Origin: Candidatus Magasanikiibacteriota bacterium
GTDB taxonomy: Bacteria; Patescibacteriota; Patescibacteriia; Magasanikbacterales; GWA2-37-8
DNA length: 46,809 nucleotides
Direction: 5' to 3'
NCBI GenBank assembly: GCA_016234265.1
Contig: JACRFW010000004.1
Span: forward strand, 1 to 46,809
Position 1 is the stretch's first letter; each line of letters begins with the position of its first letter. Shown one piece after another: positions 1 through 44,986 of this stretch. Below the pieces are notes generated by a model. That model had not been told where the DNA came from and ran no database searches. It saw only the letters and a program-made list of their open reading frames with translations. Made by a program: the position numbers and the translations under genes.

Positions 1-2180
1 CGCGACGATTTATTGAGATAACCATACACGAACAACGCGTCCTTAAAACGCTGGAGTGGTGTCGTATGTACCGTGCCCACTCTGTGCCAAAATAAATCAT
101 GCGCGGTATAGATAGTAAAAAGGTAGGCGGTGGCGGCGTCATCATCAGACAAAATAACGCCTGGTTGCTTAATTTTTTGGAGCCAACCAATAAGAGGCTG
201 ATAGTTCTGTTCGTACAACTTACTGGCATAAATAGTCCAAAGTGACTGGTACTGGCCGACGGCAGTATTCAAAAACACCACCAAGATCAAAATATAAAAA
301 AATACGGAGCGTGCCCGCTGCCAAGGCAACAAAAACCACAGCATGTAAAAACTGACAATAATGGAAAGTGGGACAATAAAAAACCAATAATAATGACCAT
401 ATTGAACTACTCGACCCGTCAGGAGTTGTTGATTCAAAGCCACCCAACCGCCCAAAATAAACGATCCGATAATGATAGAGTTTTGATCCCGCCGCCGCTT
501 ATAAATATAGAGGGCAAATAAGAGCAGCGTGACAAACCCGATCTTGCTAAAGACTGGCTGGCGCCCATGTGTCGCCCACAGGAAATAGGAGGCCTGTTTC
601 CCAGCCGCAGTGCCAAAGTACAAGAGCATTTTGATCACGCTATATGCACCCAACGCCACGCCGACTGCAGCAACAGTAAAAACTTTTTTTGCCCGATCAA
701 TATCTCTGGTGAGAGCGTACAACACACATAAGATCCCCGTCAGCGAAAGCGCAATAGTCCACGCGTAAAAATAACTGTAAAACAGCCAGCCCAAAGCCAA
801 GCCAGCCCAAATAACATGCCGTCGCCGACTTTCCCGCAAGCTCTTAACAAGTAAATTCAGGTAGGTAAAAAAACCCAAAGAGCTGACATATGGGAATGTC
901 GGACGTCCATAAATATTAAAATCAATATAAAATAAGGTCTTGTTGTAAATGATCGAATAACCACCAATGACAAAAAGCGCCGTGGCGGCTGAAAGAAAAG
1001 TATTGCCAGAAAGTTGCTGTGCCAAAAAATATATCAACAGAATGACTATAAAGACACCAATAAAATTATAAATGTTATAGATGGTAGCGGCATTTACCCG
1101 ATCGGACAGCCCAAGCAATTTTATTGGCGCCATGAGCACATATTCATTCATCGTAAATAGATAATCCTGCCCATCCTCCTTGCCTTCGCGAAAAGTAAGA
1201 TTGCCGAGCGAATGTCCCTCAAGCACTTCTTTGCCCCGAGCGATATAATTATGTCCGTCCGAGCCAAAGTGAGGAATATTAATGCCGCGGTAATCACTAC
1301 CGGCTAGATAGGAAAAAATAATTTGAGGGAACGAAACGAGCGTCGTCAGCAACAAACCGGTAATGATGATAAACGCATGGACAGACAGACCCTGCCAAAA
1401 ATTATTCTGAGACTTAGGAACATCGACACCAACGGTTGTCGCTAATTCACGAGTATAAAGTCCAGCCGCGGCCCGCTGCATAATCTTGCCAAGGCCCACG
1501 AGTGAACGGATAGAATCGCAAAAAGGATGTACTCTGGAATTTCTGAAATCGGTCCATAAGACCGGCATTTCCTTAATACGCCACCCTCGTTTGTTGGCAG
1601 TATAGGCCAGTTCAGCTTCGGCCAAAAAATGATTATCGTATTGATAATTAATAATGTCATGTCCGGCAGCCCTGGTAAACATTTTAAACCCTAAGGCGTA
1701 ATCCGTACTTTTAAAACCGAAAACCAATCGTGCCAAGAATAAAAATACATAGCCCAGACCAATGCGCAACCAAGACTGATGCGTCAAAATCTTGGCTCCC
1801 GGGGCATTGCGGCTGCCCATGAGCACGTCAACATTTTTTTTGCTCTGCAAAGTAGTATAAAAACGCAAAATTGCCTCCTCATCAACACTACCGTCAGCGT
1901 CAGTTTCAAGAATATAATCCCCCTGCGCCTGTTTCATTCCAGTTCTCACTGCCGCGCCCCGCCCCTGGTTAGGCGTATAGGAGATGAGCACAACTCGTCC
2001 GGGAAATTGTTTGACAAATTCTTCCACGACCCGCGCGGTTCTGTCGGTAGAGCCGTCGTTCACAACAATCAATTCATACTCTTCTGAAAAATGTATATTC
2101 AAAAAATTAAGCGTGCGATCAAGCGTACTGGGCAAACGGTGTTCTTCATTATAGGCAGGAATAACAACGGAAAGCCGCAT
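1..2180 (-). CDS. GT2 polyprenyl-phosphate glycosyltransferase (DPM/DPG synthase-like) fused to a polytopic GT-C-like membrane domain; 3' end runs off the window
   Basis: Translated by hand from ATG 2180: MRLSVVIPAYNEE..VVNDGSTD..NQGRG..ETDADG..LGFKMF. The frame continues with no stop into a hydrophobic domain (YRGINI..GKEVLEGHSLGN..LNQQLLTG..YTAHDLFWH) that aligns with the 24120..25949 protein. It is absent from the ORF track because no stop lies in the window. Confidence 0.88.
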   Translation of the reverse strand, partial: MRLSVVIPAYNEEHRLPSTLDRTLNFLNIHFSEEYELIVVNDGSTDRTARVVEEFVKQFPGRVVLISYTPNQGRGAAVRTGMKQAQGDYILETDADGSVDEEAILRFYTTLQSKKNVDVLMGSRNAPGAKILTHQSWLRIGLGYVFLFLARLVFGFKSTDYALGFKMFTRAAGHDIINYQYDNHFLAEAELAYTANKRGWRIKEMPVLWTDFRNSRVHPFCDSIRSLVGLGKIMQRAAAGLYTRELATTVGVDVPKSQNNFWQGLSVHAFIIITGLLLTTLVSFPQIIFSYLAGSDYRGINIPHFGSDGHNYIARGKEVLEGHSLGNLTFREGKEDGQDYLFTMNEYVLMAPIKLLGLSDRVNAATIYNIYNFIGVFIVILLIYFLAQQLSGNTFLSAATALFVIGGYSIIYNKTLFYIDFNIYGRPTFPYVSSLGFFTYLNLLVKSLRESRRRHVIWAGLALGWLFYSYFYAWTIALSLTGILCVLYALTRDIDRAKKVFTVAAVGVALGAYSVIKMLLYFGTAAGKQASYFLWATHGRQPVFSKIGFVTLLLFALYIYKRRRDQNSIIIGSFILGGWVALNQQLLTGRVVQYGHYYWFFIVPLSIIVSFYMLWFLLPWQRARSVFFYILILVVFLNTAVGQYQSLWTIYASKLYEQNYQPLIGWLQKIKQPGVILSDDDAATAYLFTIYTAHDLFWHRVGTVHTTPLQRFKDALFVYGYLNKSS

Positions 2181-2185
2181 AGAGT

Positions 2186-2992
2186 TTAAAATAATAATTT
2201 ATCTACCCACATAGACGTCAGGCGCTTACAGAGTTCCTCGCTATTGTCGCCCGATCGTATAAATACATAGAGCTCCAGGCCGAATTCGTGAGCTTCGTGC
2301 ACGAGCTCTGGCGTCATTTTCCCGGGCTCAACAAAAAACACATAATTACAACCGAGCTCATGGGCCGCTTTGAGCCCCGCGTTCTCCCAAGTGTCACCCT
2401 CGTGATAATAGCGCAAGGCGCTCGCGGCAATCGGATTTTTTCCGACATGCTCGGCGCTGGTTAGCCAGGTGAAGCCCAACCGCAGAGTGAGGCCGGTTTC
2501 TTCCAGCGCTTTTTTGGCAGCCATTACCGCTTCGGGAGAAAAGGAGTGAATGCCCATTTGTTCAATAAAACGCGACGGTTCTTTGCCCTGAACTTTAAAG
2601 GCGCCCTCTGCCCGCATGTCGCCTATGGTGACAACTATCTGCCGCGCTGTTTGAGCGGCCTTTTCTGGCGTACTACCCTTCGCCTCAAAAAAAACTTGGA
2701 TACCGCGATCATAGCAACCGGCCACATACTCCCGAAAAAAAGGAGCCGCGCCGCCAATTTGGTCAGGGGCGCGCACCTTGAGCTTGGCAAAAATTTCGGG
2801 GGACATGTTCTCAATATCCGGATCTCTCATTTTAAAATCGGCCGGGTGCACCACCCCCAGTGTTTTTTCATCACTCAAAAGCATGACATCGGCCTCCACC
2901 CCGCCGCCATAAAGACGAAAGGCTTCAAAGGCATTCGGAAAATTTTGCCCTTCCCATTTTCCGCGATGGATAATATTTGGTTTGGTTTCCAT
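2186..2992 (-). CDS. Glycerophosphodiester phosphodiesterase (GDPD)-family protein, divergent
   Basis: IIHRG, GVEADV, VVH and FFEAK match the GDPD HRG / ExD / H / ExK pattern. The C-terminus resembles the family (AHEFGLELYVF..VDKL). Confidence 0.7.
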   Translation of the reverse strand: METKPNIIHRGKWEGQNFPNAFEAFRLYGGGVEADVMLLSDEKTLGVVHPADFKMRDPDIENMSPEIFAKLKVRAPDQIGGAAPFFREYVAGCYDRGIQVFFEAKGSTPEKAAQTARQIVVTIGDMRAEGAFKVQGKEPSRFIEQMGIHSFSPEAVMAAKKALEETGLTLRLGFTWLTSAEHVGKNPIAASALRYYHEGDTWENAGLKAAHELGCNYVFFVEPGKMTPELVHEAHEFGLELYVFIRSGDNSEELCKRLTSMWVDKLLF

Positions 2993-3000
2993 AGAGGACG

Positions 3001-3978
3001 CTATTTTTGTAAAATTTTTTCACACGCCTCGGTCACGCGACAGGCAAAAGTGCTGTCGGTAATGGGCTTGGCACCAGTATGTACACAATGTATGAAATGC
3101 TCTAGCTCATTAAGAAGGGGCTCGCGGGCGTTGATAGACGGTTTTATAAATTTGGCCTCTTTTTCAAATTGGACTATCTGCGAACGATTGCCCTTACTGT
3201 TCGTGGTGCTGGGGTAGGGTAATTTCCACAAACTTAGTTTATCATGTTGAAGCTGATCGTCAAACACTGCCATGCCTTTGTCGCCCACAATGGTAATTTT
3301 TCGCACTTTTTCTGGCCAAAACCAACTGGTGGTGAGCGCGGCGGTCAAACCGTTTTGATATTGTAAGGTAGTGGAGGTAAAATCATCGCGCTCGGAGTGA
3401 CTTATAGAATGACGGCTACCCGAAATGCTAAATTGTTGCCCAGGAAAAAAATATTCTAAAATAGCCAAATCATGAACCCCAGCATCTTGAAAACAGCCCA
3501 CGTCACTCCGAATTGGACTACAGTACAAATGTTCGCCGCGGAAATATTGGATCATACCAAAACTGTCTAAAACACTTTTGAGATACCGGATGTAGTCGTT
3601 GTATAAATACTGAAAACCGACCATAAAAATATTGGATTGGCTGGCTGCGACTTTTTGTACCGCCTGGGCCTGCTTTACTGTTAACACCATCGGTTTTTCC
3701 ACCAGCACGTGCTTACCAGCTTTGAGCGCGGACATAATAAGATCAAAGTGCGTCGCGAGCGGGGTCGCAATAATGACGCAATTGAGTGTCTGGTCGCCAA
3801 AAATTTCCGCGGCGTCAGTGGTGGTTTTAATGCCTGGAGCCAACTCGGTCGCGGGCGTCATGAAAGATGCTTGGGTGCTGGCGCACACCGTGGTGAGTTG
3901 AACGCCGGGCGTGGTTTGCAAAAGCCGGGCATAGTGTTTGCCGAAGCGACCAAACCCGATGAGGCCAAAACGTAGCAT
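3001..3978 (-). CDS. Gfo/Idh/MocA-family NAD(P)-dependent oxidoreductase
   Basis: GLIGFGRFG, GKHVLVEKP and DAGVHD motifs. ATG 3978 preferred over GTG 3984. Confidence 0.9.
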   Translation of the reverse strand: MLRFGLIGFGRFGKHYARLLQTTPGVQLTTVCASTQASFMTPATELAPGIKTTTDAAEIFGDQTLNCVIIATPLATHFDLIMSALKAGKHVLVEKPMVLTVKQAQAVQKVAASQSNIFMVGFQYLYNDYIRYLKSVLDSFGMIQYFRGEHLYCSPIRSDVGCFQDAGVHDLAILEYFFPGQQFSISGSRHSISHSERDDFTSTTLQYQNGLTAALTTSWFWPEKVRKITIVGDKGMAVFDDQLQHDKLSLWKLPYPSTTNSKGNRSQIVQFEKEAKFIKPSINAREPLLNELEHFIHCVHTGAKPITDSTFACRVTEACEKILQK

Positions 3979-3992
3979 AAACACACGCTAAT

Positions 3993-6281
3993 TTAGGACA
4001 ACGCCGCACTATTCTTAAACCAGCGATAAGACCGTTTTAAACCAACCTTAAGATCAACCTTAGCGCTATAGCCCAAACTTTTTTTGGCTTTAGTTAGATC
4101 AGGACATCGACGACGGGGTTCGTCTTGCGGATAATTATCCGGATAGGAAACTAGATTCACCGCAATTTTATTATCAAAAACAACTTCAGCTACCGTATCT
4201 GCCAGCACCTTCATATTAATTTCATCGTTATCATTACCAATATTATAGACTTCTCCATCAGCGCCAAAAAGTAACACCTTAAGAAACCCCACGATAGCGT
4301 CGGTCACATAACAAAACGTCCTGGTTTGGTTGCCTTTATCGTGCACCGTCAGTGCCTTGCCTTCCATGCCTTGGCTCAAAAAAGTGGGAATGACACGATA
4401 GTCTTTAGAGCTCATACCGGGACCATACACGTTGAAAGGGCGGACAATTTTTATTGGAGTATGGTGGACCTGGTGATATGACATGGCCAGAGTTTCTCCT
4501 AAACGCTTAGATTCATCATAACATGAGCGCGGCCCTATAGAAGACACGTTGCCTTTGTATGTTTCCGGAGTCGGGATAACATTGGGGTCCGGGTCGCCAT
4601 AAATTTCGCTTGAGCTGAAATAAAGGACACTTTTCGCCTGCTTTACTCGCGCCAATTCAAGGGTATTTTTGAGCCCAAAAATTGTGCCCTCAATTGTCTC
4701 AATAGGATATTTTTTATAATATATAGGGGAAGCCACCCCTGCGGCGTTGATGATATAATCCACGCTGCCCTCTACGGTAAAAGGGGTACAAACATTATGT
4801 TCTAAAAAGGTAATAGCTGGACTGGAAATTTCACGCAATAAATTATTCTTTTTGCCCACGATATGGTTATCAATAGATACTACCCTGCATGATTCTGGTA
4901 AAAAATACTTATTGAGCATATCAACGGTCGCTACCATATAACTGCCAATAAAACCGGAGCCACCTGTTATTACCACTGTTTTGCCAGAGAGAAGTTGCGC
5001 CTCTTTACCCAAAGATTGGATGATGGAATACAAATCCTGATCAACAATATTTTCAATGATAAGCGGGCGCGGCACGGGTATTATAAATCGCTCATGCTGA
5101 ACTAATTTCTTCATAATAGGCTCGGCAAAATTCCAGGCCAAGATCAATATATAATCCGGATGGTCAACGGCCAAATGTTCCGGTCCTACCACCGGCAAAT
5201 GAGTTCCTGGCATGAATAATCCCTGCTTCCAACTACTGTCATCAACCACATAGTCAATAGTATCCTTACCAATGCCAAAATAACTAAGAAGCGTTGTGGC
5301 TTTAGCCGGCGCTCCATAGCCGACTATTTTCTTTCCTGCGGATTTCAATTCACCGAGCAACTGAAGTAACTGTCGTTTATTCTCGCCTATTCTTTGACCA
5401 AAATGAATAAAGGTTGCTTCTTGGGAAAGACCACAGGTCTCTTCCTCGGCAAAAAACTGATCAATAGCAGCAGTGTGCGGCGGCCGTGAACCTCCGCGCT
5501 TTTGCACAAAAACACGGAGCGAACCGCCGTGAGTGTCGGTGCGCTCTATGTCGAATACTTCCATGCCCAAACGCTTGAATAAAGCGCACAAGGTGTGGAC
5601 CGTAAAATACGAGAGGTGCTCATGGTAAACTGTATCAAATAGATTTTTTTCAATCAGATCGCGCAGGTAATATGCTTCAATTACAAAAACGCCATCCGGA
5701 GCCAACAATATTTTCACGCCCTCAACAATTTCATCTAAATCATCAACATGCGGAAAAACGCTCGTCGCCGTGACGAGATGCGCCGTGCCGTGGTCTCTCA
5801 CAATTTCGCCTGCCACCGTTGGACTAAAAAAAACTGGCTTTGTTTCAATGCCATTGCTGGTAGCCATCTCTGCGATCTTGATTGCCGGATCAATACCGAG
5901 CACTCGCCTGCCACGATTTTTAAAAGGGCGCAGGAGTATACCATCATTGCTCCCAATATCCACCACCAAAGCGCCACCAGGCAAAGACAGACGACCTATC
6001 ATGGTTTCGGAAAATGTTTCAAAGTGAGAAACAAAGGCCGGTGAAGTTGAAGAGACATATACATAGTTGCGAAACAACAGTTCAGGCGAAACAACATCCG
6101 CGAGTTGCACAAAACCACAGTCGCGGCACAGTTGGAGCTCAAGCGGAAAAGACTGCTCTAGTAGCTGCAGCTGATCTGGACGTAGAAAGGCGTTGGCCGG
6201 CGGTGTTGAGCCAAGTGATAGTACGCCGTGCAGATTCTGTCCAATGCAAACGCGGCAGGTTGTTCTCTTCATTACCATCAT
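3993..6281 (-). CDS. Fusion of an NDP-sugar C-methyltransferase (Zn-binding, class I SAM) and a UDP-glucuronate-decarboxylase-like NAD-dependent epimerase/dehydratase
   Basis: N-part: CRVC/CRDC, DIGSNDG, YHEHLSYF, HGGS, GYGAPAKA, ILAWNF. C-part: ITGGSGFIG, SSSEIYG, GPRSCYDESKR, QTRTFCY, DEPRRRCPD. Single uninterrupted frame. Confidence 0.88.
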   Translation of the reverse strand: MMVMKRTTCRVCIGQNLHGVLSLGSTPPANAFLRPDQLQLLEQSFPLELQLCRDCGFVQLADVVSPELLFRNYVYVSSTSPAFVSHFETFSETMIGRLSLPGGALVVDIGSNDGILLRPFKNRGRRVLGIDPAIKIAEMATSNGIETKPVFFSPTVAGEIVRDHGTAHLVTATSVFPHVDDLDEIVEGVKILLAPDGVFVIEAYYLRDLIEKNLFDTVYHEHLSYFTVHTLCALFKRLGMEVFDIERTDTHGGSLRVFVQKRGGSRPPHTAAIDQFFAEEETCGLSQEATFIHFGQRIGENKRQLLQLLGELKSAGKKIVGYGAPAKATTLLSYFGIGKDTIDYVVDDSSWKQGLFMPGTHLPVVGPEHLAVDHPDYILILAWNFAEPIMKKLVQHERFIIPVPRPLIIENIVDQDLYSIIQSLGKEAQLLSGKTVVITGGSGFIGSYMVATVDMLNKYFLPESCRVVSIDNHIVGKKNNLLREISSPAITFLEHNVCTPFTVEGSVDYIINAAGVASPIYYKKYPIETIEGTIFGLKNTLELARVKQAKSVLYFSSSEIYGDPDPNVIPTPETYKGNVSSIGPRSCYDESKRLGETLAMSYHQVHHTPIKIVRPFNVYGPGMSSKDYRVIPTFLSQGMEGKALTVHDKGNQTRTFCYVTDAIVGFLKVLLFGADGEVYNIGNDNDEINMKVLADTVAEVVFDNKIAVNLVSYPDNYPQDEPRRRCPDLTKAKKSLGYSAKVDLKVGLKRSYRWFKNSAALS

Positions 6282-6296
6282 ACTTCTCAACTGGTC

Positions 6297-6683
6297 TTAA
6301 ATAAGTTTTACGCGGACAGTATCAGCCTCATAGGCGGCCTGATGGCGGGAGTTGAGAGCCATCACTACCCATGTGGTGTCTTCTAAAAAACGAAAGGCAT
6401 GAATGACCATTGCCGGAGAATAAACCATGTCGCCAGTCTGTAAAATTGCTGACTTGATCTCTGAATCTTCAGCTCCTACTGGTTTCTCAAAATATTCCAT
6501 TTTACCAGAGAGCATGTAGCAGTAGTGCGCATCGGTCTTGTGATAATGGTTCGCCCGAACGCTTCCGGCTTTAGAAGTGATAATTAAGGTACTTTTTATG
6601 ATAGTTTTTCCATCATCTAAAATTTTTGTAATGCCGCCGCGATTGTCGGTAAACTCGGGACGTATGCCTTTTGTTATATGCAT
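6297..6683 (-). CDS. Cupin-fold NDP-sugar isomerase/epimerase (RmlC/FdtA/WxcM-like)
   Basis: FTDNRG, RANHYH and PAMVIHAF. Start moved to ATG 6683 because a promoter overlaps the longer ORF call. Confidence 0.75.
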   Translation of the reverse strand: MHITKGIRPEFTDNRGGITKILDDGKTIIKSTLIITSKAGSVRANHYHKTDAHYCYMLSGKMEYFEKPVGAEDSEIKSAILQTGDMVYSPAMVIHAFRFLEDTTWVVMALNSRHQAAYEADTVRVKLI

Positions 6684-6717
6684 AAAATAAAGGCTATATG
6701 AATTAAACAACCCCCTT

Positions 6718-6746
6718 ATTATGAATGACCCTAAGCGCTTTGTCAA
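6718..6746 (-). promoter_or_regulatory. Sigma70-type promoter for the cupin / C-methyltransferase block
   Basis: TTGACA-17 nt-CATAAT on the minus strand, 34 nt upstream of ATG 6683. Confidence 0.65.
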
Positions 6747-7417
6747 GGAGACAAAAGATGTTTTGACTCTATAAAATCCACCACGCTTTCCGCCACCATT
6801 GCATGGCCAGCGGCGGTGAAGTGCCCGGTATCACGAATAAATACTTGGGTCTTTTCCGAGTTGATAGCCCTCGCAGTTCGATCGCTGAGATCCAAAATAG
6901 GAAACTTTGTTCCGATAACCTGTTGAAATATTTTATTCGGCAAAGAAGCGTCATACGTTGCCGGAAGTGTTTCAGACAGTTGTTTAGCATATTTATTATC
7001 TACTTGCCAATAATTAGGTATAATAACAACATTAAACTTCCCGCCATCACGATTTACTGTTTCTCCGAGTTTAAGGGCTAATTCGGCCGTAAAACGCATC
7101 AATTTAAGCCGATCAATATCGGCCGGATTAAAAAAGGCGCGATCATCGTCCCCTAAGGTCACCGCCTTAATAGCTACCGGATCAAATAGGCCAAGTCGCA
7201 GCCACTGTCTATATAAAAATGTCGCAGGCCAGCGTGCTATGCCAATTTGCTTAATGGAAAGTAGATAAAGATGCTCAGTGACAATAGCCAAAAGGCGCCT
7301 TATAAAACGGACTAATTCTAACTGCTGACTTTCATTATTCTGGGCAGCCGCTGTAGCATCATTCAAAGCCGCCTTCAAACTAAGCAAGCGACGGCCAGAT
7401 AAAAAATTAAGTTTCAT
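6743..7417 (-). CDS. SGNH/AlgJ-like acyltransferase/esterase C-terminal portion, apparently lacking the N-terminal GDS block
   Basis: C-terminal VVIIP..DTGHFTAAGH pattern; lies directly after an MBOAT gene; no GDS motif in the ORF. Confidence 0.55.
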   Translation of the reverse strand: MKLNFLSGRRLLSLKAALNDATAAAQNNESQQLELVRFIRRLLAIVTEHLYLLSIKQIGIARWPATFLYRQWLRLGLFDPVAIKAVTLGDDDRAFFNPADIDRLKLMRFTAELALKLGETVNRDGGKFNVVIIPNYWQVDNKYAKQLSETLPATYDASLPNKIFQQVIGTKFPILDLSDRTARAINSEKTQVFIRDTGHFTAAGHAMVAESVVDFIESKHLLSP

Positions 7418-7434
7418 AATATCAGCAGAATTTC

Positions 7435-8901
7435 TTAAAACTGAAAATAGATAAACGGACGCTCACCAAAATACCCAAAAAATATTATCCAAAGCATCAG
7501 GGCATTATAAAATGTCCAACGAACCCATGGCGCGCGCGCCGCGAGCGCTTCACCCAAGGTGCCATTTTTTATCCGAAAATGCACATACTCCATAAAAATA
7601 ATGGCAATAAATATATGCGCCAAGCTAAACGTGCTCACGCCGAGCACGCCGGACAATCTAATAAACGAACCTGCTCTCAAAAAATAATCACCAAGTCCGA
7701 CAAAAAAATGCCGGAAAATATAAACGGCATCGGCAATAGATTTGGCCCGGAAAAGTATCCAACTGATGGAAATCAAAAAGAATGTTATGATCATCTGCAA
7801 AAACGCGCGCAAACGCAGACTCTGGTCAAAACGAATAAAATTAATGATTTTCTCACGAAGAGCCTTGGTCCAAATTGAAATAACTATATAACAACCAAGA
7901 AGACCGCCCCAAATAACGTAGTTCCAGGCCGCACCATGCCACAAACCACTCAACAGGAAAACAATCATGATATTTAACGATCGACGCCATTTTGCCACTA
8001 ACTTACCGCCCAATGGGATATACACATAATCACGAAACCAAGAGGAAAGCGAAATGTTCCAGCGCCGCCAAAATTCTCCGACCGATTTAGAAAAGTATGG
8101 CCGATCAAAATTGTTCATTAGTTTAAAACCCATGACCTTCGCTGAACCTATAGCGATATCAGTATAACCTGAGAAATCGCCATAAATTTGGAAAGCAAAT
8201 AAAATGACGGCAATAATAAGTGGCCAACCATAAAATTGGGTCGGATAGTCAAACACTCGATTAACAATCGTAGCGCTATTGTCGGCAATAACAATTTTCT
8301 TAAAAAAACCCCAAAGCATAAGACTCAGCCCAGAAGACACCCGCGGCCAACTGAATTCATGTTTTTCCCTAAATTGATGAAGCAAATTCTGCGGCCTTTC
8401 AATCGGTCCCGCTACGAGCTGGGGGTAAAACATGACATATAACGCATAAATGCCAAAATGCCGCTCTGCCTTTTGATTGCCGCGATAGACTTCAATAGTG
8501 TAACTCAACGCCTGAAAAGTATGAAAAGATAATCCGATTGGTAAGATAATCTTTAGAATCGGCATAGAATAGTTCCAATGTAGTGCTTGCATGAGAACAT
8601 TCAGATTGCCGCTGGCAAAACCATAGTATTTGAAAAAAGCCAAAAAACCAATATTGGATATGATGCTGATGATCAAATAGGCTTTCCTCCTCGCCCCGCT
8701 AGAGCGATCGATCAAAATGCCAGCTATATAATCGACAATGATCGTGGTGAACAAAATAAGAATGTAAACGGGTATAAAAGCCATGTAAAAAACGCAGCTG
8801 GACAACAGCAACCAAAGCCAACGAAATCTGTGTGGCATCATGAAATAGACGGCGGTAACAACCGGAAAAAATATAAAAAAAATAAAAGAATTAAAGATCA
8901 T
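7435..8901 (-). CDS. MBOAT-family O-acyltransferase (AlgI/PatA/DltB-like)
   Basis: LPIGLSFHTFQ, PQLVAGPIER, QIYGDFSGY, FWRRWNISLSSW, SGLWHGA (catalytic His) and C-terminal FIYFQF. Confidence 0.95.
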   Translation of the reverse strand: MIFNSFIFFIFFPVVTAVYFMMPHRFRWLWLLLSSCVFYMAFIPVYILILFTTIIVDYIAGILIDRSSGARRKAYLIISIISNIGFLAFFKYYGFASGNLNVLMQALHWNYSMPILKIILPIGLSFHTFQALSYTIEVYRGNQKAERHFGIYALYVMFYPQLVAGPIERPQNLLHQFREKHEFSWPRVSSGLSLMLWGFFKKIVIADNSATIVNRVFDYPTQFYGWPLIIAVILFAFQIYGDFSGYTDIAIGSAKVMGFKLMNNFDRPYFSKSVGEFWRRWNISLSSWFRDYVYIPLGGKLVAKWRRSLNIMIVFLLSGLWHGAAWNYVIWGGLLGCYIVISIWTKALREKIINFIRFDQSLRLRAFLQMIITFFLISISWILFRAKSIADAVYIFRHFFVGLGDYFLRAGSFIRLSGVLGVSTFSLAHIFIAIIFMEYVHFRIKNGTLGEALAARAPWVRWTFYNALMLWIIFFGYFGERPFIYFQF

Positions 8902-8909
8902 ATACTACG

Positions 8910-9581
8910 CTACCGTTCTAGGAGAAAATGAAAAGTATTAAAATACAAGGGGCGCAACAGCACCTTGTACAATAAAAAAACAAAAAAAGCGGAATGCCCA
9001 AACCTTTGTCTGATTTTTATTTCGCGGATATCACGAACAGTAAAACCAACGCTCGCGAGCATGCTCTTCGCGGCCGTATAAGTATAGTAATGCATGGCAA
9101 CCAACCGTTGGCGCCCCGCCGCCCCATCTTCTTTCTGCCTTCCGAATAGACGCAACAGACATTCAGCCCATGCACGCGGAAGCCAATTAATACCATACAT
9201 ATGGTAGTGGTAGTCATACCAACCAAAACGGTTATGAAAACTAATATATCCCTTGCCGCTCGGCTTTAAAACTCGGAAAATTTCTCGCGCCACTTGGCGG
9301 GGGTCATCAACATGTTCGGTCACTTCAGCACAATTCACAAAATCAAAATAAGCGTCGGGGAAAGGCAGCCGCTCTCCTTTTCCTTGGTGTACAGCAACAG
9401 TAAGCCCGCGCATCTGAGCACTTTCCCACGCTTCCATATTGTAAGCAGAATTTATTTCCAGGCCATAAACCATGAATCCCCGCTCGGCCATCTCGCACAA
9501 AAATTTACCCCGACCAGAACCAACATCTAGCACTTTTCCTGAGGGGGGGGCAAGTTGGGCGCAATAATCACAATGATTCAT
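8910..9581 (-). CDS. Class I SAM-dependent methyltransferase
   Basis: VLDVGSGRG, LPFPDAYFD, EHV and RVLKP. ATG 9581 lies just after the transaldolase stop. Confidence 0.88.
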   Translation of the reverse strand: MNHCDYCAQLAPPSGKVLDVGSGRGKFLCEMAERGFMVYGLEINSAYNMEAWESAQMRGLTVAVHQGKGERLPFPDAYFDFVNCAEVTEHVDDPRQVAREIFRVLKPSGKGYISFHNRFGWYDYHYHMYGINWLPRAWAECLLRLFGRQKEDGAAGRQRLVAMHYYTYTAAKSMLASVGFTVRDIREIKIRQRFGHSAFFVFLLYKVLLRPLYFNTFHFLLER

Positions 9582-9588
9582 AAACGAA

Positions 9589-10323
9589 CTAGGCCATCCA
9601 CCCCTTAAAATCACTCAGAAACTGCTGAACGACCTGGTCGGTCTTAAAATGCTTCACCATATCGGAAAAAAATTTTGGCGGCACCGTGGCAATATGCGCC
9701 CCGGCCAAAGCCGCGTCGCGAATATCTGCCACCGAACGAATACTGCCGATAATAATCTGAGTGGCGCTCTCTCCGCTATCAACTATTTGCCGCACTGATT
9801 GGGTGACAAACGCCGGGTCAAAATCTTTCGCGTCCAAAGCCTTCTTTTTCTTCAATTCTTCGCGCGCGGCCGCGGCCGATTCTTCCACTCCGCCGTCACG
9901 AATTCTGCCCCAAAATAAACTCACATAAGCCGCTCCAGCTTCAATGGCGAGCATTGCCTGGGATACAGTCATGCAGGCCGTACAGTTAACCGATACACCC
10001 GCCGCGCTTAACTGCCGGATCGTTTCCAGCTCGTTCCAACCGATTTGGACCTTAATGCTGATCGGCGGATAATTGAACCGCCTGACAAACTCCCTGGCTT
10101 GTTTCAAAATTTCTTCCGTGTCCCGGGAAAATACCTCCACGCTCAAGTGAATGCCCGGCCGATATTTTTTTATCAAAGCGATGATTTTTTCAATATGACC
10201 TTCAAAAGAACCTTTTGGTTCTTTTGAAAGCAATGATGGATTAGTGGTAATCCCCTGGATGAAACCGCGTTTTAATGCCGATTCAATGTCATCCAGGTGG
10301 GCGCTGTCAATAAATATCTTCAT
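9589..10323 (-). CDS. tal: Transaldolase (short TalC/FSA fold)
   Basis: MKIFIDSA, GITTNPS, Schiff-base Lys in ISIKV and VNCT. Glu in SVEV and Phe in SLFWGR fit transaldolase rather than fructose-6-phosphate aldolase. Confidence 0.85.
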   Translation of the reverse strand: MKIFIDSAHLDDIESALKRGFIQGITTNPSLLSKEPKGSFEGHIEKIIALIKKYRPGIHLSVEVFSRDTEEILKQAREFVRRFNYPPISIKVQIGWNELETIRQLSAAGVSVNCTACMTVSQAMLAIEAGAAYVSLFWGRIRDGGVEESAAAAREELKKKKALDAKDFDPAFVTQSVRQIVDSGESATQIIIGSIRSVADIRDAALAGAHIATVPPKFFSDMVKHFKTDQVVQQFLSDFKGWMA

Positions 10324-10365
10324 ACGCTTATTATAAAACTAAATAAGGCCTTTATAAGTGCTATT

Positions 10366-10394
10366 ATATTACCAAAAATAAAAAAACTGGTCAA
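10366..10394 (-). promoter_or_regulatory. Sigma70-type promoter upstream of transaldolase
   Basis: TTGACC-17 nt-TAATAT with a TG extension on the minus strand. Confidence 0.5.
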
Positions 10395-10421
10395 TCCTAT
10401 TTAGCCAGTTTCTTGATAATA

Positions 10422-10994
10422 TCACTCGCCTATAATGTCCAGGATAGCCGCCAGCTCTTCGGCGCGCCAATCGGAAGCAAGATCATTGTTGCGGCCGTCC
10501 GAAATGATAATTGACCGCGTCCCGGCCGCCCGAGCGGCTTCCAGATCACTCTTGGTATCACCCACCATATAGGATGACGGCAAATGGATACCCCACTTCT
10601 CCGCCGCCGTCAAAAGCATTCCGGGCAATGGCTTCTTGCAAAGGCACCCGTCGTTGCGGCCGTGGATACAGACATAAATATCGTCCAGAGGCAGATTCTT
10701 CACTTCGGCCATTATTTTCTCATGTTCCTCCGGTGGCATGGTGCCATAGGTGATATCCGGCTGATTAGTGACCAGGATACGCAACCACCCGCGCTCTCCC
10801 AGCGCTTCTAACACCTCAACGATGCCCGGTTTAAAACGGAATTCGTTGTAATTGAACGGGGCCGTCCAGCGGACTTTTTTACCCTGAACGAAAAAATCTT
10901 CGCCGCGATCAACGACATCATTCAACACGCCGTCGCGATCAAGAAATATAGCTCGTTTCCCGGTAGCCGGAATTTTTGGACTGTTGATAGTCAT
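10422..10994 (-). CDS. gmhB: D,D-heptose 1,7-bisphosphate phosphatase (HAD-IIIA)
   Basis: AIFLDRDGV, VTNQ, CxH..CxCKKPxPGM and MVGD..SD; adjacent to gmhA. Confidence 0.88.
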   Translation of the reverse strand: MTINSPKIPATGKRAIFLDRDGVLNDVVDRGEDFFVQGKKVRWTAPFNYNEFRFKPGIVEVLEALGERGWLRILVTNQPDITYGTMPPEEHEKIMAEVKNLPLDDIYVCIHGRNDGCLCKKPLPGMLLTAAEKWGIHLPSSYMVGDTKSDLEAARAAGTRSIIISDGRNNDLASDWRAEELAAILDIIGE

Positions 10995-11607
10995 ATATCT
11001 TTTGTTTAAGGCCAAAAATAATCAGATGGTGCAGGACCACATGCATCCCCTCCACGATCGGGGTGGAGTTGGCCGGAACGACAATGCCAATATCCACCAG
11101 GTCTTTCATCGGTCCGCCGTCAAAGCCCGACAGGCCGATAGTTTTGCCCCCGCTATCTTTTATAAATTGCAAACCCTTCATCAGATTTTGCGACCACTGC
11201 CCGGCCTTGTCCTGCCCGCTGCCACCATGAACGCTAACAGCTATACCGACACCGCCTTCAACGTACAGCGTGGAAAGCTGATGAACATAGATGTTATCCC
11301 AGCCCCAGTCATTTACCAAAGCTGTAACAAGGGGAATATTGTCCAAAAGGGTCATGGCTTTGATGCCTCTATCTTGCGGCGCGGCGCAAATGGTTTTGGT
11401 TAGATCGGCTACCAGGTGCGTAGCCGTAGCGGCTGACCCGCCATTTCCCATGACATACACCCAACGGCCATCCTTCCAAGCTTCAAAAAGTAGCTCAATC
11501 GCTTGATCCAACTTTTGGCTATAAACTACCTTAATGGCAGTAGCGACTTCCTGTACCTCTCCCAAAAATGTGGCCGCAAAAGACTGACGCGGTTGTAATT
11601 CTTCCAT
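10939..11607 (-). CDS. gmhA: SIS-domain phosphoheptose isomerase-like protein
   Basis: GNGGSAA..H, ALVND, LSGFDGG and VEGMH. It has an atypical SVHGGSG..WSQN insertion. Confidence 0.8.
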   Translation of the reverse strand: MEELQPRQSFAATFLGEVQEVATAIKVVYSQKLDQAIELLFEAWKDGRWVYVMGNGGSAATATHLVADLTKTICAAPQDRGIKAMTLLDNIPLVTALVNDWGWDNIYVHQLSTLYVEGGVGIAVSVHGGSGQDKAGQWSQNLMKGLQFIKDSGGKTIGLSGFDGGPMKDLVDIGIVVPANSTPIVEGMHVVLHHLIIFGLKQKIYDYQQSKNSGYRETSYIS

Positions 11608-11611
11608 ACTA

Positions 11612-12133
11612 TTAATCAAAAGTAACTAACGAATGAATAGTACACCCTCTTAAACGTTCCCTTCCAGCCATAGGAGTCATTTCAACAATAAATGATAACC
11701 CAACAATTTCTCCACCCAATTTTTTTACTAGCTTCACCGCTGCGGCCATGGTTCCGCCAGTCGCCAACGTATCGTCAACAATTATAACCCGTTGCCCGGG
11801 AGTAATAGCGCCCTCCTGCATCTCAATAATTTGGGCGGCGTATTCATAACTATACTCCTGCATGACCGTTGGAGGCGGCAACTTATTCTTTTTCCGAATC
11901 ATCGCCATGCCAACGCCCAATCGGTAGGCCAAGGCGGACGCTATGACAAACCCTCTGGCTTCAATGCCGACCACCAGATCAATCTTTTGTCCTTGATAAG
12001 GCTGCGCCAACTGTTCAATAATTTCCTTAAACATGGCGGCGTCTTTCAGGAGCGGAGCGATGTCGTAACAAACTATTCCCGGTCGCGGCCAATCATTAAT
12101 CTGGACAATTTTTTGTTTCAAATTTTCCCACAT
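11612..12133 (-). CDS. apt: Adenine phosphoribosyltransferase
   Basis: DWPRPGI..DI, GIEARGF, IRKKNKLP, EY and the PRPP-binding IVDDTLATGGT. Confidence 0.92.
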   Translation of the reverse strand: MWENLKQKIVQINDWPRPGIVCYDIAPLLKDAAMFKEIIEQLAQPYQGQKIDLVVGIEARGFVIASALAYRLGVGMAMIRKKNKLPPPTVMQEYSYEYAAQIIEMQEGAITPGQRVIIVDDTLATGGTMAAAVKLVKKLGGEIVGLSFIVEMTPMAGRERLRGCTIHSLVTFD

Positions 12134-12192: not shown

Positions 12193-12307
12193 GATTGCGC
12201 TATTCACTAACCCAAAACTATTTTGGGACACTGTACAGCGGGGGTGACCAGTCCCCAGTAGGTCGTTTTCTCCTTTGTTGTCTCTTGCTAGGTAACTCGT
12301 AGCGGTG

Positions 12308-13240: not shown

Positions 13241-13270
13241 GTGCCTGCTCCTTGTGTGGGTGTGCTCCAG

Positions 13271-13324
13271 TGCACAACACCCCTGCTGCTTCAAAATATT
13301 TTAAGACAACAGGAGTGCTGTGCA
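13271..13324 (-). other. Long RNA hairpin in the 5' leader of the IMPase gene
   Basis: Minus strand TGCACAGCACTCCTGTTG..CAGCAGGGGTGTTGTGCA gives 18 consecutive pairs; the three non-Watson-Crick pairs are all G-U on this strand. Confidence 0.65.
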
Positions 13325-21276: not shown

Positions 21277-22599
21277 TTAACGACCCACACCAAGATAGCT
21301 GAAACCCGCCGCGCGCAGAGCTACTTCTTGGTCGTAGAAAAAATTTCTGGTGTCAAAAAATATATAAGGCGGCTTTAAACACAACTTGAGCTTGATAAGA
21401 TTCAATTTCTTAAATTCAGGCCAGTTGGTAATAATAACTACTGCTTGGCAGCCTTTGGCGCACTCGTAAGAGTTGGCAAAAAACTCCACGGGCAGAGCCT
21501 TTTTTACCTCCTCGGCATCAGCCATTGGATCGTGCGCGTGGATAATTGCTCCGGCGGTGAGCAATTTAGAAATTATTTCCAAAGCTAAGGCTCGGCGCAG
21601 CGTGGCTGTGCCTGGTTTATACGTCAGCCCAAAAACGGCGATCTTTTTCCCTTTTAAATTTCCTAGATAATCTGTTAGATATTTGGTTGCTAGCGATCGC
21701 CGGATCTTATTTTTCTTAAATACACCAGCGATAACCGGCAGATCAATATCCGCTTCGTGAGCTTTATTGAGAAGGATTTTTAAATCTCTGGCCAATGTGC
21801 CGCCAGAGAATCCGATGCTCGCATCTAGATAAGCCCCCGGCCCAATACGCTCATCAGAGCGCAACGCTTTGGCTACCGCCACAATATCTGCGCCATACAG
21901 CTGGCACAGATCGGCAATGTCGTACGTAAAACTAAGCGACGTTGCCAAAAAAGCGTTGAGAGCGTGCTTGCTCATTTCCGCTGACGACGGATCCATCACC
22001 AGAAAAGACGTGCGCAAAGGCGCAAAAATATCTTTTATCTTTTCTGCCGTCTCAGCTGTAGATGCCCCCACCACGATTCGTCCTGGCTTCATAAAACTTT
22101 CCACGGCCTTGCCGAGTTGTAAATTCTCCGGCACATAGGCCACTGAAAATTTTAACTCCGGCCTCGCTTCGGAAATAAAACCTACTATGGCCTGAGTGGT
22201 GCCAACAGGTAATTGACTGGAAATAACAACTAGCACGTCTTGTTTTAAAACCGGTACAGCGCGCTGTAAAAAATCCCAAATAGGGTCCAGGTGCACCATA
22301 TCCTTTTCATCCACTGGCGTATCAAACGCGACCCACACAGTATTGCACTCCTTCAGTTTATTTAAATCGGTAGTAAAATCCAACCGGTAATCGTGAATGC
22401 AATTTTTAATTTTGTCTTCCAACTGCGGCTCCATGAGCGGCGCCCGGCCTTCCTGCAAACGAGCCACCACCGCGGCGTCTTGATCCCACCCAATCACAGT
22501 GTGCCCCACGTCTGCTAAACAGCCAGCATACACACTACCCAAGTGCCATAAGCCAGCAACAGCAATTATATATTTATTTTGCACGACAAAAATGCTCAT
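21277..22599 (-). CDS. UDP-glucose/GDP-mannose dehydrogenase-family protein, atypical
   Basis: DTP, VPENL, AEMSKHALNAFLA, DERIG and GLTYKPGT. The usual GxGGxC catalytic Cys motif reads GFSGGT here. Confidence 0.88.
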   Translation of the reverse strand: MSIFVVQNKYIIAVAGLWHLGSVYAGCLADVGHTVIGWDQDAAVVARLQEGRAPLMEPQLEDKIKNCIHDYRLDFTTDLNKLKECNTVWVAFDTPVDEKDMVHLDPIWDFLQRAVPVLKQDVLVVISSQLPVGTTQAIVGFISEARPELKFSVAYVPENLQLGKAVESFMKPGRIVVGASTAETAEKIKDIFAPLRTSFLVMDPSSAEMSKHALNAFLATSLSFTYDIADLCQLYGADIVAVAKALRSDERIGPGAYLDASIGFSGGTLARDLKILLNKAHEADIDLPVIAGVFKKNKIRRSLATKYLTDYLGNLKGKKIAVFGLTYKPGTATLRRALALEIISKLLTAGAIIHAHDPMADAEEVKKALPVEFFANSYECAKGCQAVVIITNWPEFKKLNLIKLKLCLKPPYIFFDTRNFFYDQEVALRAAGFSYLGVGR

Positions 22600-42876: not shown

Positions 42877-44039
42877 AGGAGAGAACGTATAAAATCCGCC
42901 ATTCGCGGGGCAACGGTACCCCAAGAATAGTCTCGCGCCACGAGCGCGCTGGCATTAGCGCGCAGTTTATCACTCAAAACCGGATCAGTAAGCACGCGCT
43001 CAATTTTTTGCGCGATATCCTCGGCATTGGCCGCCTGACAAAACAAACCGGTTTCCCCGTCTTTTAAAAAATCCGGAATGCCACCCACCGCGGTGGCCAC
43101 CACGGGCACTCCGGCCGCCATGGCCTCAAGAAAAGCGTTGCCCAACCCCTCGGAAAGACTGGGCCGGCAAAAAACATCACTCCCCCACAGATAGGGCGGG
43201 ATATTACGATGAGCAATTTCTCCCAAAAAATGAACGCGTTTGGTAAGCCCAAGCTGCGCGCTCAAGCGCTCAAGCGATGGCTGACGCTCGCCACCACCCA
43301 AAATGACTAGATGAGTATTAGCCGGTAAAAGAGCCGAGGCCAAGAGGAGATCCTCAAGCCCGTTCTTTTTAACCAAGCGGGAAACGGTAATAATAATTTT
43401 GGTATTTTCAGAAATGCCCAACTGCGAGCGCAGTTCCCGCCGAAGCGTGGCCTGGTCGTGACCGAGGGGAGGAGTAAATGTCGGCACCGCCACGCCATTC
43501 GGAATAATGACTGGAGTGTACGAAAAACTAAGTTCAAGAGCCCACCGAGACAAGTATGAACTGATAGCTTGCACCGCGTTGGCTTTTTTGAAGATCTGTT
43601 TAAAATACGGCCAGCACCACCACACATGCTTATAAATATCCCACTTGCTATCCCCTTCTTGCAAAGTAAGCAAAAATGGCACGGTTTTGTTTCTTTTCTT
43701 AAAGCGCAACGCGGCAAAACCGGCATAGCTCGCCATTATGCCCCACACCAGGTCAAATCCGCCAGCTAGCGGACAGAGCTCTTTCGCTTTTTTGTATCCA
43801 GATAAAATTAAACGATATTTGTCCCAGGCGTTGCCCTTGCCAATGCGATATACTTCCACCGCGCCAATTTTTTCGTACTCTGGTGCATCAGGCTTCAGCC
43901 GAGCGGTAATAAGAACAAAAGAAAAATCGTGAGCCAAGCGATCAGTCAGCTCCTTTACCGCCACTTCGGCCCCGCCTACATACGGAAGATAGGCGGTTGA
44001 AAAAATGAGAATCCTTTTTTTTGGCTGGTTCGCTATCAT
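42873..44039 (-). CDS. GT4 glycosyltransferase
   Basis: GGAE, TLQEGD, SRLVKKNG and SEGLGNAFLEAMA. Confidence 0.93.
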   Translation of the reverse strand: MIANQPKKRILIFSTAYLPYVGGAEVAVKELTDRLAHDFSFVLITARLKPDAPEYEKIGAVEVYRIGKGNAWDKYRLILSGYKKAKELCPLAGGFDLVWGIMASYAGFAALRFKKRNKTVPFLLTLQEGDSKWDIYKHVWWCWPYFKQIFKKANAVQAISSYLSRWALELSFSYTPVIIPNGVAVPTFTPPLGHDQATLRRELRSQLGISENTKIIITVSRLVKKNGLEDLLLASALLPANTHLVILGGGERQPSLERLSAQLGLTKRVHFLGEIAHRNIPPYLWGSDVFCRPSLSEGLGNAFLEAMAAGVPVVATAVGGIPDFLKDGETGLFCQAANAEDIAQKIERVLTDPVLSDKLRANASALVARDYSWGTVAPRMADFIRSLL

Positions 44040-44986
44040 ACCTGACTTTTCTCAAGCCGGGCACGGAAATCAACAATAGTTTTCTTCAGCCCATCCGCTA
44101 AAGACACCTTCGGCTCCCATTGCAACAGTTTCTTGGCTTTGGTGATATCGGGGCAACGGCGACGAGGATCATCAATTGGTAAATCTTTGTATAGAGGTTT
44201 TTGTTTACTATCGCATAGGTCGCTTATGGTCGCGGCAAAAGTTTGTATTGACATTTCTTGAGGATTGCCTAAATTGATTGGGCCAGTAATTTTTTTATCT
44301 GTTTTCATCATCGCAATAAGCCCGGTCACCAAATCATCAACATAGCAAAAACTCCTGGTTTGCGAACCATCGCCATATAAAGTGAGCGGCTCTTTCTTCA
44401 GCGCTTGAACAATAAAATTAGAAACCACGCGACCATCGTTAAAAGCCATCCGCGGACCGTAGGTGTTAAAAATACGCACCACTTTTATTTCCATCCCGTG
44501 CATACGAAAATAATCAAAGCAGAGCGTCTCGGCTACTCGCTTGCCTTCGTCATAGCAGGCCCTGGGGCCGATTGGGTTCACATTACCGCGATATTCTTCC
44601 ACTTGCGGGTGCACCTCCGGGTCGCCATAGACCTCGGAAGTGGAAGCCTGAAGAAATCTTGCCCCATGTTCCCTAGCCAAACCGAGCATGTTAATCATGC
44701 CGACTGTATTCGCTTTAATGGTATGCACCTGATTGCTCTGGTATTGCACCGGCGAAGCCGGACAGGCCAAATTATAAACTTGATCAATCACACCATCAAT
44801 AAACAGCGGTTCAACAATATCATGTTTAATGAAAGTAAAACGAGGATTGTCGGCGACTCCCTCTAAATTATCCATTGAACCGGTAAACAAATTATCCACG
44901 CACACAACTTCGTGACCTTGCCCGATAATACTCTCAGAGATATATGAGCCGATAAACCCCGCCCCGCCAGTGACCAAAATCCGCAT
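44036..44986 (-). CDS. uxs: UDP-glucuronate decarboxylase (UDP-xylose synthase)
   Basis: VTGGAGFIG, NLACPASP, ASTSEVYGDP, GPRACYDEGKR, RIFNTYGP and DGRVVSNF. Confidence 0.92.
   Translation of the reverse strand: MRILVTGGAGFIGSYISESIIGQGHEVVCVDNLFTGSMDNLEGVADNPRFTFIKHDIVEPLFIDGVIDQVYNLACPASPVQYQSNQVHTIKANTVGMINMLGLAREHGARFLQASTSEVYGDPEVHPQVEEYRGNVNPIGPRACYDEGKRVAETLCFDYFRMHGMEIKVVRIFNTYGPRMAFNDGRVVSNFIVQALKKEPLTLYGDGSQTRSFCYVDDLVTGLIAMMKTDKKITGPINLGNPQEMSIQTFAATISDLCDSKQKPLYKDLPIDDPRRRCPDITKAKKLLQWEPKVSLADGLKKTIVDFRARLEKSQV

Follow-up and report, generated by a model that had tools for sequence, protein, structure and literature searches.

Which sugar is made by a protein that joins a sugar C-methyltransferase (MT) to a domain resembling UDP-glucuronate (UDP-GlcA) decarboxylases? 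Such a fusion is encoded in a 46,809-nt stretch of DNA from Candidatus Magasanikiibacteriota bacterium (assembly GCA_016234265.1, contig JACRFW010000004.1, positions 1 to 46,809; the window), where nearly all genes of the first 12 kb lie on the minus strand according to the open reading frame (ORF) list. An initial annotation, made from the letters and their ORFs, had described a two-domain protein of roughly 760 aa flanked by a cupin and a Gfo/Idh/MocA-family reductase (GFO), and had proposed that it hands a labile 4-keto intermediate to C-methylation on the way to a branched sugar. We find that the fusion is a natural protein and that its two halves form the core of a conserved gene cassette, for which a methyl-branched UDP-pentose is the probable product.

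The fusion ORF (3993..6290, minus strand) opens with a TTG and specifies a protein of 765 aa; the stored database copy (P0002, 762 aa) starts three codons later, at an ATG at 6281 (MMVMK). In the 765-aa numbering, Pfam places Methyltransf_13 (residues 12-73), Methyltransf_23 (103-245) and Methyltransf_14 (253-407) in the N-terminal half and Epimerase/GDP_Man_Dehyd, marking an SDR (short-chain dehydrogenase/reductase) of the extended class, at residues 439-752 in the C-terminal half, of which the Epimerase model by itself covers 439-685. The junction quoted in the initial annotation, FIIPVPRPLIIENIVDQDL, is present and spans the end of the MT half and the start of the linker. The length, the two-domain split and the junction are all confirmed. 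Linker and junction (4992..5051, minus strand, residues ~411-430) differ in length among homologues, and in an AlphaFold2 (AF2) model of the whole fusion (pLDDT 88.9, pTM 0.86) the linker is a helix from residue 412. Neither half passes the cut-off of any NCBIfam model.

The N-terminal half (5052..6281, minus strand; residues 1-410 of the 762-aa protein) is predicted to be a sugar C-methyltransferase of the TylC3/MtmC/TcaB9 type, in agreement with the initial annotation. Like MtmC, TylC3, TcaB9 and KijD1, it combines a Cys4 zinc module with an S-adenosylmethionine (SAM)-binding fold and a C-terminal C-MT domain, scoring 74 bits on Methyltransf_13, the Cys4 zinc-binding module (cut-off 31.3), 57.5 bits on Methyltransf_23 and 176.8 bits on Methyltransf_14. 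It matches MtmC, the D-mycarose 3-C-methyltransferase, at E = 8.7e-106 (358 bits, 43% identity), TcaB9 at E = 1.7e-74 (255 bits) and KijD1 likewise at ~1e-74, and its model superposes on the three structures with TM-scores of 0.93-0.95 (0.93 for MtmC). The TcaB9 residues Y76, H181, Y222, E224 and H225, named in PDB titles and located in the alignment by a chain index equal to the residue number plus two, correspond to Y73, H178, Y219, E221 and H222 of the fusion; in 58 fused proteins, neither these nor the zinc cysteines C9, C12, C52 and C55 vary. According to their PDB titles, the relatives with solved structures were crystallised with dTDP-sugars; they are stand-alone enzymes, whereas the MT of the fusion carries an SDR.

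The C-terminal half (3993..4991, minus strand; residues ~431-762 plus the stop codon) is a diverged SDR of the UDP-xylose synthase (UXS) type and is predicted to act as a UDP-uronate 4-oxidase/decarboxylase, which upholds the decarboxylase-like domain of the initial annotation. Its top characterised match is human UXS1 (hUXS1; E = 2e-53, 185 bits), with lesser matches to 8vr2 (108 bits), RmlB-type 4,6-dehydratases (≤84), EvdS6 (79) and ArnA (~50). The best structural match of this half is 2b69, on which it superposes at a TM-score of 0.93, and it keeps the glycine-rich NAD motif GGSGFIGS. A separate, canonical UXS, correctly noted before at 44036, occupies 44036..44986 on the minus strand (398 bits and E = 4e-118 to hUXS1); the SDR half is 39% identical to this paralogue.

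We compared the active site across a tree of 129 SDR domains (quick IQ-TREE, LG+G4) built from 79 of 80 genome loci described below, 36 of 110 stored MT-SDR fusions (every third, with the window's kept), 11 SDR-MT fusions and three canonical UXS as the outgroup. The MT-linked SDRs split from the canonical UXS with a support of 100. In all 126 of them, hUXS1 positions 118-120 (mapped through an alignment to 4gll whose chain index runs one ahead of the residue number) read S-S-E, the UXS signature Ser119/Glu120/Arg277 is intact at all three positions, and Tyr147, Lys151, Asn176 and Arg277 are retained. In the hUXS1 study (PMC3438964), Glu120 and Arg277 are replaced in related epimerases, and Arg277 keeps the intermediate inside the active site. 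The nearest known systems are UXS1 and decarboxylases that release the 4-keto product (the ArnA C-terminal domain and EvdS6, with RsU4kpxs and CalS9/AtmS9 also named in PMC10338323). Among them UXS1 is closest in sequence and fold, and its Ser119, Glu120, Arg277, Tyr147, Lys151 and Asn176 recur in the MT-linked SDRs.

The difference from the UXS1 group lies in position 118, in the separate clade and in the constant pairing with a C-MT: Thr118 is replaced by Ser in 126/126 MT-linked SDRs, and Thr stands at this position in 2/3 canonical UXS. According to PMC10338323, Ser is a usual SDR alternative to Thr, the TSE triad is found in most decarboxylases, and the T126A variant of EvdS6 still forms the 4-keto product but almost no UDP-xylose. 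By analogy with that phenotype, the clade-wide change to Ser may affect release of the keto intermediate, and its universality would mark a functional shift away from canonical UXS.

The fusion recurs well beyond this assembly. A search of 1.84 billion representatives returned 6227 proteins at E ≤ 1e-30, and Pfam scans covered 27 long matches from it. The domain-architecture search that the initial annotation had suggested, run with the full-length protein, recovered both domain sets in 120/120 of the clusters listed, from many sources and contigs; Magasanikbacteria, Woesebacteria, Woesearchaeota, Nanoarchaeota and Udaeobacter are among those named. On other contigs, two relatives that are 88% and 84% identical share the architecture, three fused loci in genomes have no stop between the halves, and composition is even across 2001-8000 (GC 0.43-0.48). 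An assembly or gene-calling artefact, the objection raised when the fusion was first noted, is refuted by these observations and is practically inconceivable; nothing was found in its favour, the sharp compositional shifts of the window lying elsewhere, at 12200-15600.

The stored fused proteins number 121, including two from the window itself; the MT comes first in 110 (MT-SDR) and the SDR in 11 (SDR-MT). A genome scan with two SDR motifs yielded at least 592 confirmed relatives among 600 matching stretches, of which the best 80 loci were kept for context. In these 80, MT is adjacent to and followed by SDR in 59 and preceded by it in one, and the two are fused in three (all DPANN); the genes lie >300 nt apart in seven loci and on opposite strands in four, and one gene only is present in six. 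In the tree, the SDR-MT fusions form one clade (support 99), while the MT-SDR fusions need at least four changes on well-supported branches, which indicates that fusion arose several times. The fusion is thus real and natural, with several independent origins and in both orders, and it is a minority, derived state, two adjacent genes being the common form.

Two further kinds of joining were considered and rejected. Adjacent MT/SDR pairs might have been read as one frame with a read-through stop, but the two genes share a frame in 20/59 pairs and differ in 39/59, which is the one-in-three chance rate. Cupin-MT and SDR-GFO fusions that an ORF pass suggested in three loci (L029, L033 and L037) were discarded as well, since the frames differ.

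Genuine fusions of other kinds occur among the stored relatives, namely cupin-MT (P0143, P0179), MT-cupin (P0152, P0192, P0234, P0253), cupin-MT preceded by a glycosyltransferase family 2 (GT2) domain (P0202), SDR-cupin-MT (P0125) and RmlD-like-MT (P0198, P0203). In P0131, the MT is fused to an SDR that has a TDE triad and is without the UXS-type Arg motif. The TDE triad is a mark of RmlB-type dehydratases; if it is the dehydratase triad here, C-MTs have been fused to both kinds of keto-sugar-forming SDR, with diagnostic residues that differ between them. P0206 carries an SDR that is 47% identical to the fusion SDR and 38% to canonical UXS, with an STSE triad and an EPQRRCPD motif, fused to a transketolase-like thiamine pyrophosphate (TPP) domain. 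By analogy with the route proposed for eurekanate, P0206 may represent a variant that adds a two-carbon branch. Some MT and MT-linked SDR relatives (P0158, P0267 and P0231) are interrupted by inteins that carry LAGLIDADG endonuclease domains.

Both flanking genes described in the initial annotation are present, the cupin at 6297..6683 and the GFO at 3001..3984, and they recur elsewhere: across the 80 loci, the usual gene order is cupin, MT, SDR and GFO on one strand. The flank reaches ≥600 nt upstream and ≥1100 nt downstream of the core in 62 loci; by tblastn (E ≤ 1e-5, coverage ≥50%), 46 of these have a cupin homologue nearby and 44 a GFO homologue, with the two together in 36 and eight loci lacking either. 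The cupin, C-MT, UXS-like SDR and GFO are a conserved cassette with an MT/SDR core. Presence of the cupin follows the MT subtype: in the 56 loci where MT and SDR adjoin and the flank is long enough, it is found in 42/46 with an MT ≥42% identical to the window's and in 0/10 with an MT below 42% (Fisher p = 3e-8, uncorrected for kinship), suggesting two cassette types. The cupin-less type with a distant MT includes Mycobacterium sp. E796 (L037) and a Rhizobiales isolate (L053).

Other neighbours in the 80 loci are a small GT2 (42 loci), a DegT-type aminotransferase (11), an NDP-sugar 6-dehydrogenase of the Ugd-like kind (11) and a nucleotidyltransferase (two). In Prochlorococcus (L074), GT2, cupin, MT, SDR, GFO and 6-dehydrogenase genes are contiguous on one strand, and in Mycobacterium sp. 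(L037) the order is MT-SDR-GFO-Ugd-canonical UXS, with a 6-dehydrogenase to which the TuaD (UDP-glucose 6-dehydrogenase) model gives 511 bits and the UDP-N-acetylglucosamine (UDP-GlcNAc) 6-dehydrogenase model 65 bits. The window has its own NDP-sugar 6-dehydrogenase, similar to UDP-glucose dehydrogenase, at 21277..22599 on the minus strand (TIGR03026 303 bits, cut-off 189.8; TuaD 288 bits, cut-off 700); it is the likely source of the uronate precursor. Named carriers of the cassette are Mycobacterium sp. E796, Sorangium sp. So ce1078, Nonomuraea fuscirosea, two Rhizobiales isolates and Prochlorococcus sp. AG-355-A09, and carrier genome bins are assigned to Magnetospirillum, Phaeospirillum, Omnitrophota, Elusimicrobiota, Planctomycetota and Verrucomicrobiota.

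The cupin starts at a TTG at 6746 in the ORF list (149 aa); because 50 homologues align from the ATG at 6683 (MHITKGIRPEF), we take the gene to be 6297..6683 (minus strand, 128 aa). Invariant positions in a 51-sequence alignment are D13, R15, G16, R43, N45, H46, G60 and H95; a conserved HxH pair comprises the invariant H46 and H48, which is present in at least 90% of the sequences. Against the PDB, the profile of this alignment matches QdtA (6.7e-6), RmlC-like proteins (1.4e-5), FdtA (5.5e-5) and Cap5F (1.7e-4) over the full length, and also generic cupin cores (oxalate decarboxylase). The AF2 model (pLDDT 97.1) has as its first Foldseek matches QdtA, FdtA, CapF, HCAN_0198, FdtD, WlaRB and RmlC/EvaD/StrM, all of which act on NDP-keto-sugars, with TMq of 0.72-0.76 and E ~1e-6 for QdtA, FdtA, HCAN_0198, FdtD and WlaRB.

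The cupin is accordingly related to NDP-4-keto-sugar 3,4-ketoisomerases (QdtA/FdtA), RmlC-type epimerases (RmlC/EvaD) and the CapF cupin domain, which are its best full-length profile and fold matches, at ~20% identity. Its conserved HxH motif may correspond to the catalytic pair H49/H51 of FdtA, named in PDB titles. As the Pfam FdtA model PF05523 is absent from its matches up to E 5, the cupin is not filed as a member of the FdtA family; the RmlC model PF00908 reaches E 0.036, below its cut-off.

The GFO (3001..3984, minus strand) is the predicted keto-sugar reductase of the cassette. It matches PF01408, the N-terminal Rossmann domain, at 94.5 bits (cut-off 24) and PF22725, the C-terminal GFO domain, at 46.4 bits (cut-off 27), and no NCBIfam equivalog scores above its cut-off; the best named relatives, all below cut-off, are UDP-GlcNAc 3-dehydrogenase, the top NCBIfam match, and inositol dehydrogenases. 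Its best PDB match is 3c1a, a structural-genomics entry described as a 'putative oxidoreductase'. The cassette GFO of Magnetospirillum (L056:2012-2914) matches 3c1a at E = 3.7e-75, and this orphan structure is therefore probably an orthologue of the cassette GFO.

Domain identities, retained catalytic residues, conserved gene order, repeated fusion and the 6-dehydrogenase gene link are direct observations. Which substrate is used (UDP-GlcA or another UDP-uronate), whether the 4-keto intermediate is released, which carbon is methylated, how the steps follow one another, what the product is and whether there is any channelling, as the initial annotation proposed, are matters of inference. We consider it reasonably probable that the cassette converts UDP-GlcA, by way of UDP-4-keto-pentose and a C-methylated keto-pentose, to a UDP-C-methyl-pentose. 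UDP-glucose dehydrogenase would make the UDP-glucuronate precursor, which the SDR half would oxidise at C4 and decarboxylate to UDP-4-keto-pentose without reducing it to UDP-xylose. The MT half would then methylate a carbon adjoining the keto group, C3 by the precedent of MtmC, TcaB9 and KijD1, the cupin would isomerise or epimerise a keto intermediate, and the GFO would reduce the remaining keto group, perhaps re-using the NADH of the first step. The resulting UDP-C-methyl-pentose would go to a neighbouring GT2, for use in a surface glycan. P0206 fits a clade of SDRs that supply keto-pentose to carbon-branching enzymes, as is proposed for eurekanate (PMC10338323).

Several observations weigh against this route. 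The top NCBIfam model on the SDR half is dTDP-glucose 4,6-dehydratase (108 bits, cut-off 365), and the UDP-4-keto-pentose/UDP-xylose synthase model gives 78 bits (cut-off 294); the window's canonical UXS shows the same ranking. The S/T-S-E triad also occurs in GDP-mannose 4,6-dehydratases. Judging from PDB titles, the characterised MT relatives in the PDB all bind dTDP-sugars, not UDP-sugars, and 69/80 loci are without a Ugd-like gene. The entry 8vr2 is described in the PDB as an oxidoreductase/decarboxylase, and enzymes of its type presumably use the 2-acetamido uronate UDP-N-acetylglucosaminuronate (UDP-GlcNAcA), although no paper on 8vr2 was found in the open-access literature; the cassette substrate could then be a 2-acetamido uronate. 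Arg277, which in hUXS1 retains the intermediate, is conserved in the MT-linked SDRs; an equivalent residue is also found in ArnA, which releases the 4-keto product (PMC10338323).

A further difficulty concerns the cupin, which is left without a clear job if the pentose is methylated at C3, because a pentose has no stereocentre at C5 and its C3, once methylated, can no longer enolise. The earlier proposal that the cupin and the reductase finish a branched sugar may thus imply the wrong order of steps, although both genes belong to the conserved set. The cupin may instead act before the MT, methylation may take place at C5, or the substrate may not be a pentose. In the first case, a cupin acting as a 3,4-ketoisomerase could direct the methyl group to C4 or C2 of a 3-keto-pentose, a regiochemistry for which we know of no precedent in this MT family.

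A classical branched 6-deoxyhexose route would give every enzyme a textbook job, including the cupin with its matches to RmlC, EvaD and StrM: the SDR would be an atypical NDP-hexose 4,6-dehydratase, the MT would act at C3 of a 4-keto-6-deoxyhexose, the cupin as a 3,5- or 5-epimerase and the GFO as a 4-ketoreductase, yielding a 6-deoxy-3-C-methyl-hexose akin to evalose, virenose or mycarose. The dehydratase model that heads the NCBIfam ranking and the MT fused to a TDE-triad SDR in P0131 also agree with it. We nevertheless regard this route as unlikely, given that the SDR half scores 185 bits to UXS1 and ≤84 bits to any 4,6-dehydratase, that Ser119/Glu120/Arg277 are present and the Asp of the TDE triad is lacking in 126/126 domains, and that a nucleotidyltransferase is found in 2/80 loci against 11/80 for the 6-dehydrogenase. 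Quite unlikely, in our assessment, is the same chemistry starting from UDP-GlcNAcA, which would lead to a C-methyl-branched 2-acetamido-pentose, possibly aminated in the 11/80 loci with a DegT-like gene. Here the second place of 8vr2 among PDB relatives and the 288 bits of the window 6-dehydrogenase, far under the equivalog cut-off of 700 for UDP-glucose dehydrogenase, have to be set against the higher score to UXS1 (185 bits vs 108 bits for 8vr2) and against the L037 6-dehydrogenase, which prefers the UDP-glucose model (511 vs 65 bits).

It could also be that the two halves are co-expressed and do not catalyse consecutive steps, the SDR making UDP-xylose or serving as the final 4-ketoreductase and the MT acting on a keto-sugar from another enzyme, for instance a GFO dehydrogenase working at C3. 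The invariance of Arg277 would suit a decarboxylase that retains its intermediate, and the named sugar-acting matches of the GFO are described as C3 enzymes (UDP-GlcNAc 3-dehydrogenase at the top and, weakly, a sugar 3-ketoreductase). However, a canonical UXS is already encoded in the window, and consecutive steps are the simplest explanation for strict adjacency and for fusion that has recurred in both orders. The change of Thr118 to Ser is also universal, and loss of the corresponding Thr in EvdS6 abolishes the reductive step (PMC10338323). We hold this arrangement to be decidedly improbable.

The UDP-C-methyl-pentose route has partial parallels in known systems. ArnA shares the layout of the fusion: its N-terminal domain transfers a group, its C-terminal domain is a UDP-GlcA decarboxylase, and it belongs to a pathway that leads to a modified pentose for the envelope. 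The N-terminal domain of ArnA is a formyltransferase, which acts after transamination, whereas that of the fusion is a predicted SAM-dependent C-methyltransferase, and the two proteins have no global structural match (rmsd 21). Eurekanate, found in everninomicin and avilamycin and made, on the proposed route, by EvdS6 and a TPP enzyme, has a carbon branch on a decarboxylase-made UDP-4-keto-pentose, as proposed here; its two-carbon unit is placed at C4 by the TPP enzyme, while the methyl group of the cassette product would come from SAM. To our knowledge, few branched-chain sugars start from a decarboxylase-made pentose. The EvdS6 paper (PMC10338323) presents this origin as setting eurekanate apart among branched-chain sugars.

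Searches of the open-access literature brought up no paper that links a C-methyltransferase with a UXS-type enzyme and none on natural C-methyl-pentoses in glycans, in keeping with the remark in the initial annotation that the fusion was not recognised from characterised pathways. The enzyme families are known; their widespread combination was not found described in that literature, and the predicted product would be new. If the proposed route is correct, the methyl-branched UDP-pentose would add to the known nucleotide sugars and would widen the range of substrate classes of a well-studied MT family, and the orphan crystal structure 3c1a would gain a function.

A broader reading, which we find plausible in outline but somewhat doubtful as a whole, is that the cassette makes a new class of sugar, a methyl-branched pentose produced by a SAM-dependent TylC3-type enzyme from UDP-4-keto-pentose, and that this sugar decorates the envelopes of bacteria of the candidate phyla radiation (CPR), DPANN archaea, Alphaproteobacteria, Omnitrophota and a marine Prochlorococcus. 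In that case, the Ser118 UXS clade would be a dedicated decarboxylase supplying keto-pentose for carbon branching, with methyltransferases as its partners and a TPP enzyme in the case of P0206. The cassette is present in lineages with almost unknown surface glycans (CPR and DPANN), the recurrent fusions are a natural setting in which to study the transfer of labile keto-sugars between enzymes, and the existence of cultured carriers (Nonomuraea fuscirosea, Sorangium and the Rhizobiales isolates) makes the prediction directly testable.

The promoter assigned to these genes in the initial annotation, TTGACA-17-CATAAT, is present as a sigma-70-like site at 6718..6746 on the minus strand (read from 6746 to 6718), with 11/12 consensus matches. 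It sits ~35 nt upstream of the cupin ATG, its TTGACA overlaps the stop codon of the upstream gene, and it ranks best of 33 promoter-like sites in 1..10500, a region whose shuffled versions give 19.6 ± 4.7 sites. It is a candidate promoter, a consensus match not being proof of function. Rfam and tRNA scans of the window gave no matches.

Downstream of the GFO gene by 8 nt lies a gene for a 268-aa protein (2186..2992, minus strand) with no Pfam or NCBIfam family and nothing usable in Pfam up to E 5. ESM Atlas relates it to clusters of glycerophosphodiester phosphodiesterase (GDPD; feature score 0.92, TM 0.77), which is a lead only; it has no homologue in any of the 80 loci, and its membership of the cassette system is uncertain. 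The following gene (3..2180, minus strand) runs off the window and encodes a GT2 domain with a large multi-pass membrane domain, a candidate transferase for the product. The GT2 domain scores 99.5 bits and weakly matches polyprenyl-phosphate sugar transferases, ArnC among them. One of the loci (L032) matches the membrane part only (41% identity) and another (L009) the GT2 part only (48%).

Directly upstream of the cassette, at 6743-8901, a gene for an MBOAT protein (DltB-like, 141 bits) is followed by one for a weak AlgX/SGNH-like protein, and the two look like a glycan O-acylation pair; across the 80 loci, the AlgX-like protein has no homologue and the MBOAT protein has one, in L058. A heptose-nucleotide pathway is spread over 9589-12133 and 18581-20277, with a transaldolase, a GmhB-like phosphatase, a GmhA-like isomerase, an HddA-like GHMP kinase and a nucleotidyltransferase, every match lying below its equivalog cut-off.

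The window is also a compositional mosaic: GC content is 60-72% at 12200-14400, falls at once to 28-30% at 14600-15600 and is ~45% elsewhere, a pattern that indicates foreign DNA or an assembly join at 12200-15600. The GC-rich part holds an ORF of the inositol-monophosphatase family (12308-13294, minus strand) and a family-less ORF (13570-14406, minus strand), and the GC-poor part holds a family-less 309-aa ORF on the plus strand. Within the glycan island of the window, an asparagine-synthase-type amidotransferase at 29982-31838, which recurs in 4/80 loci (e.g. L055:14136-15998), may amidate a uronic acid.

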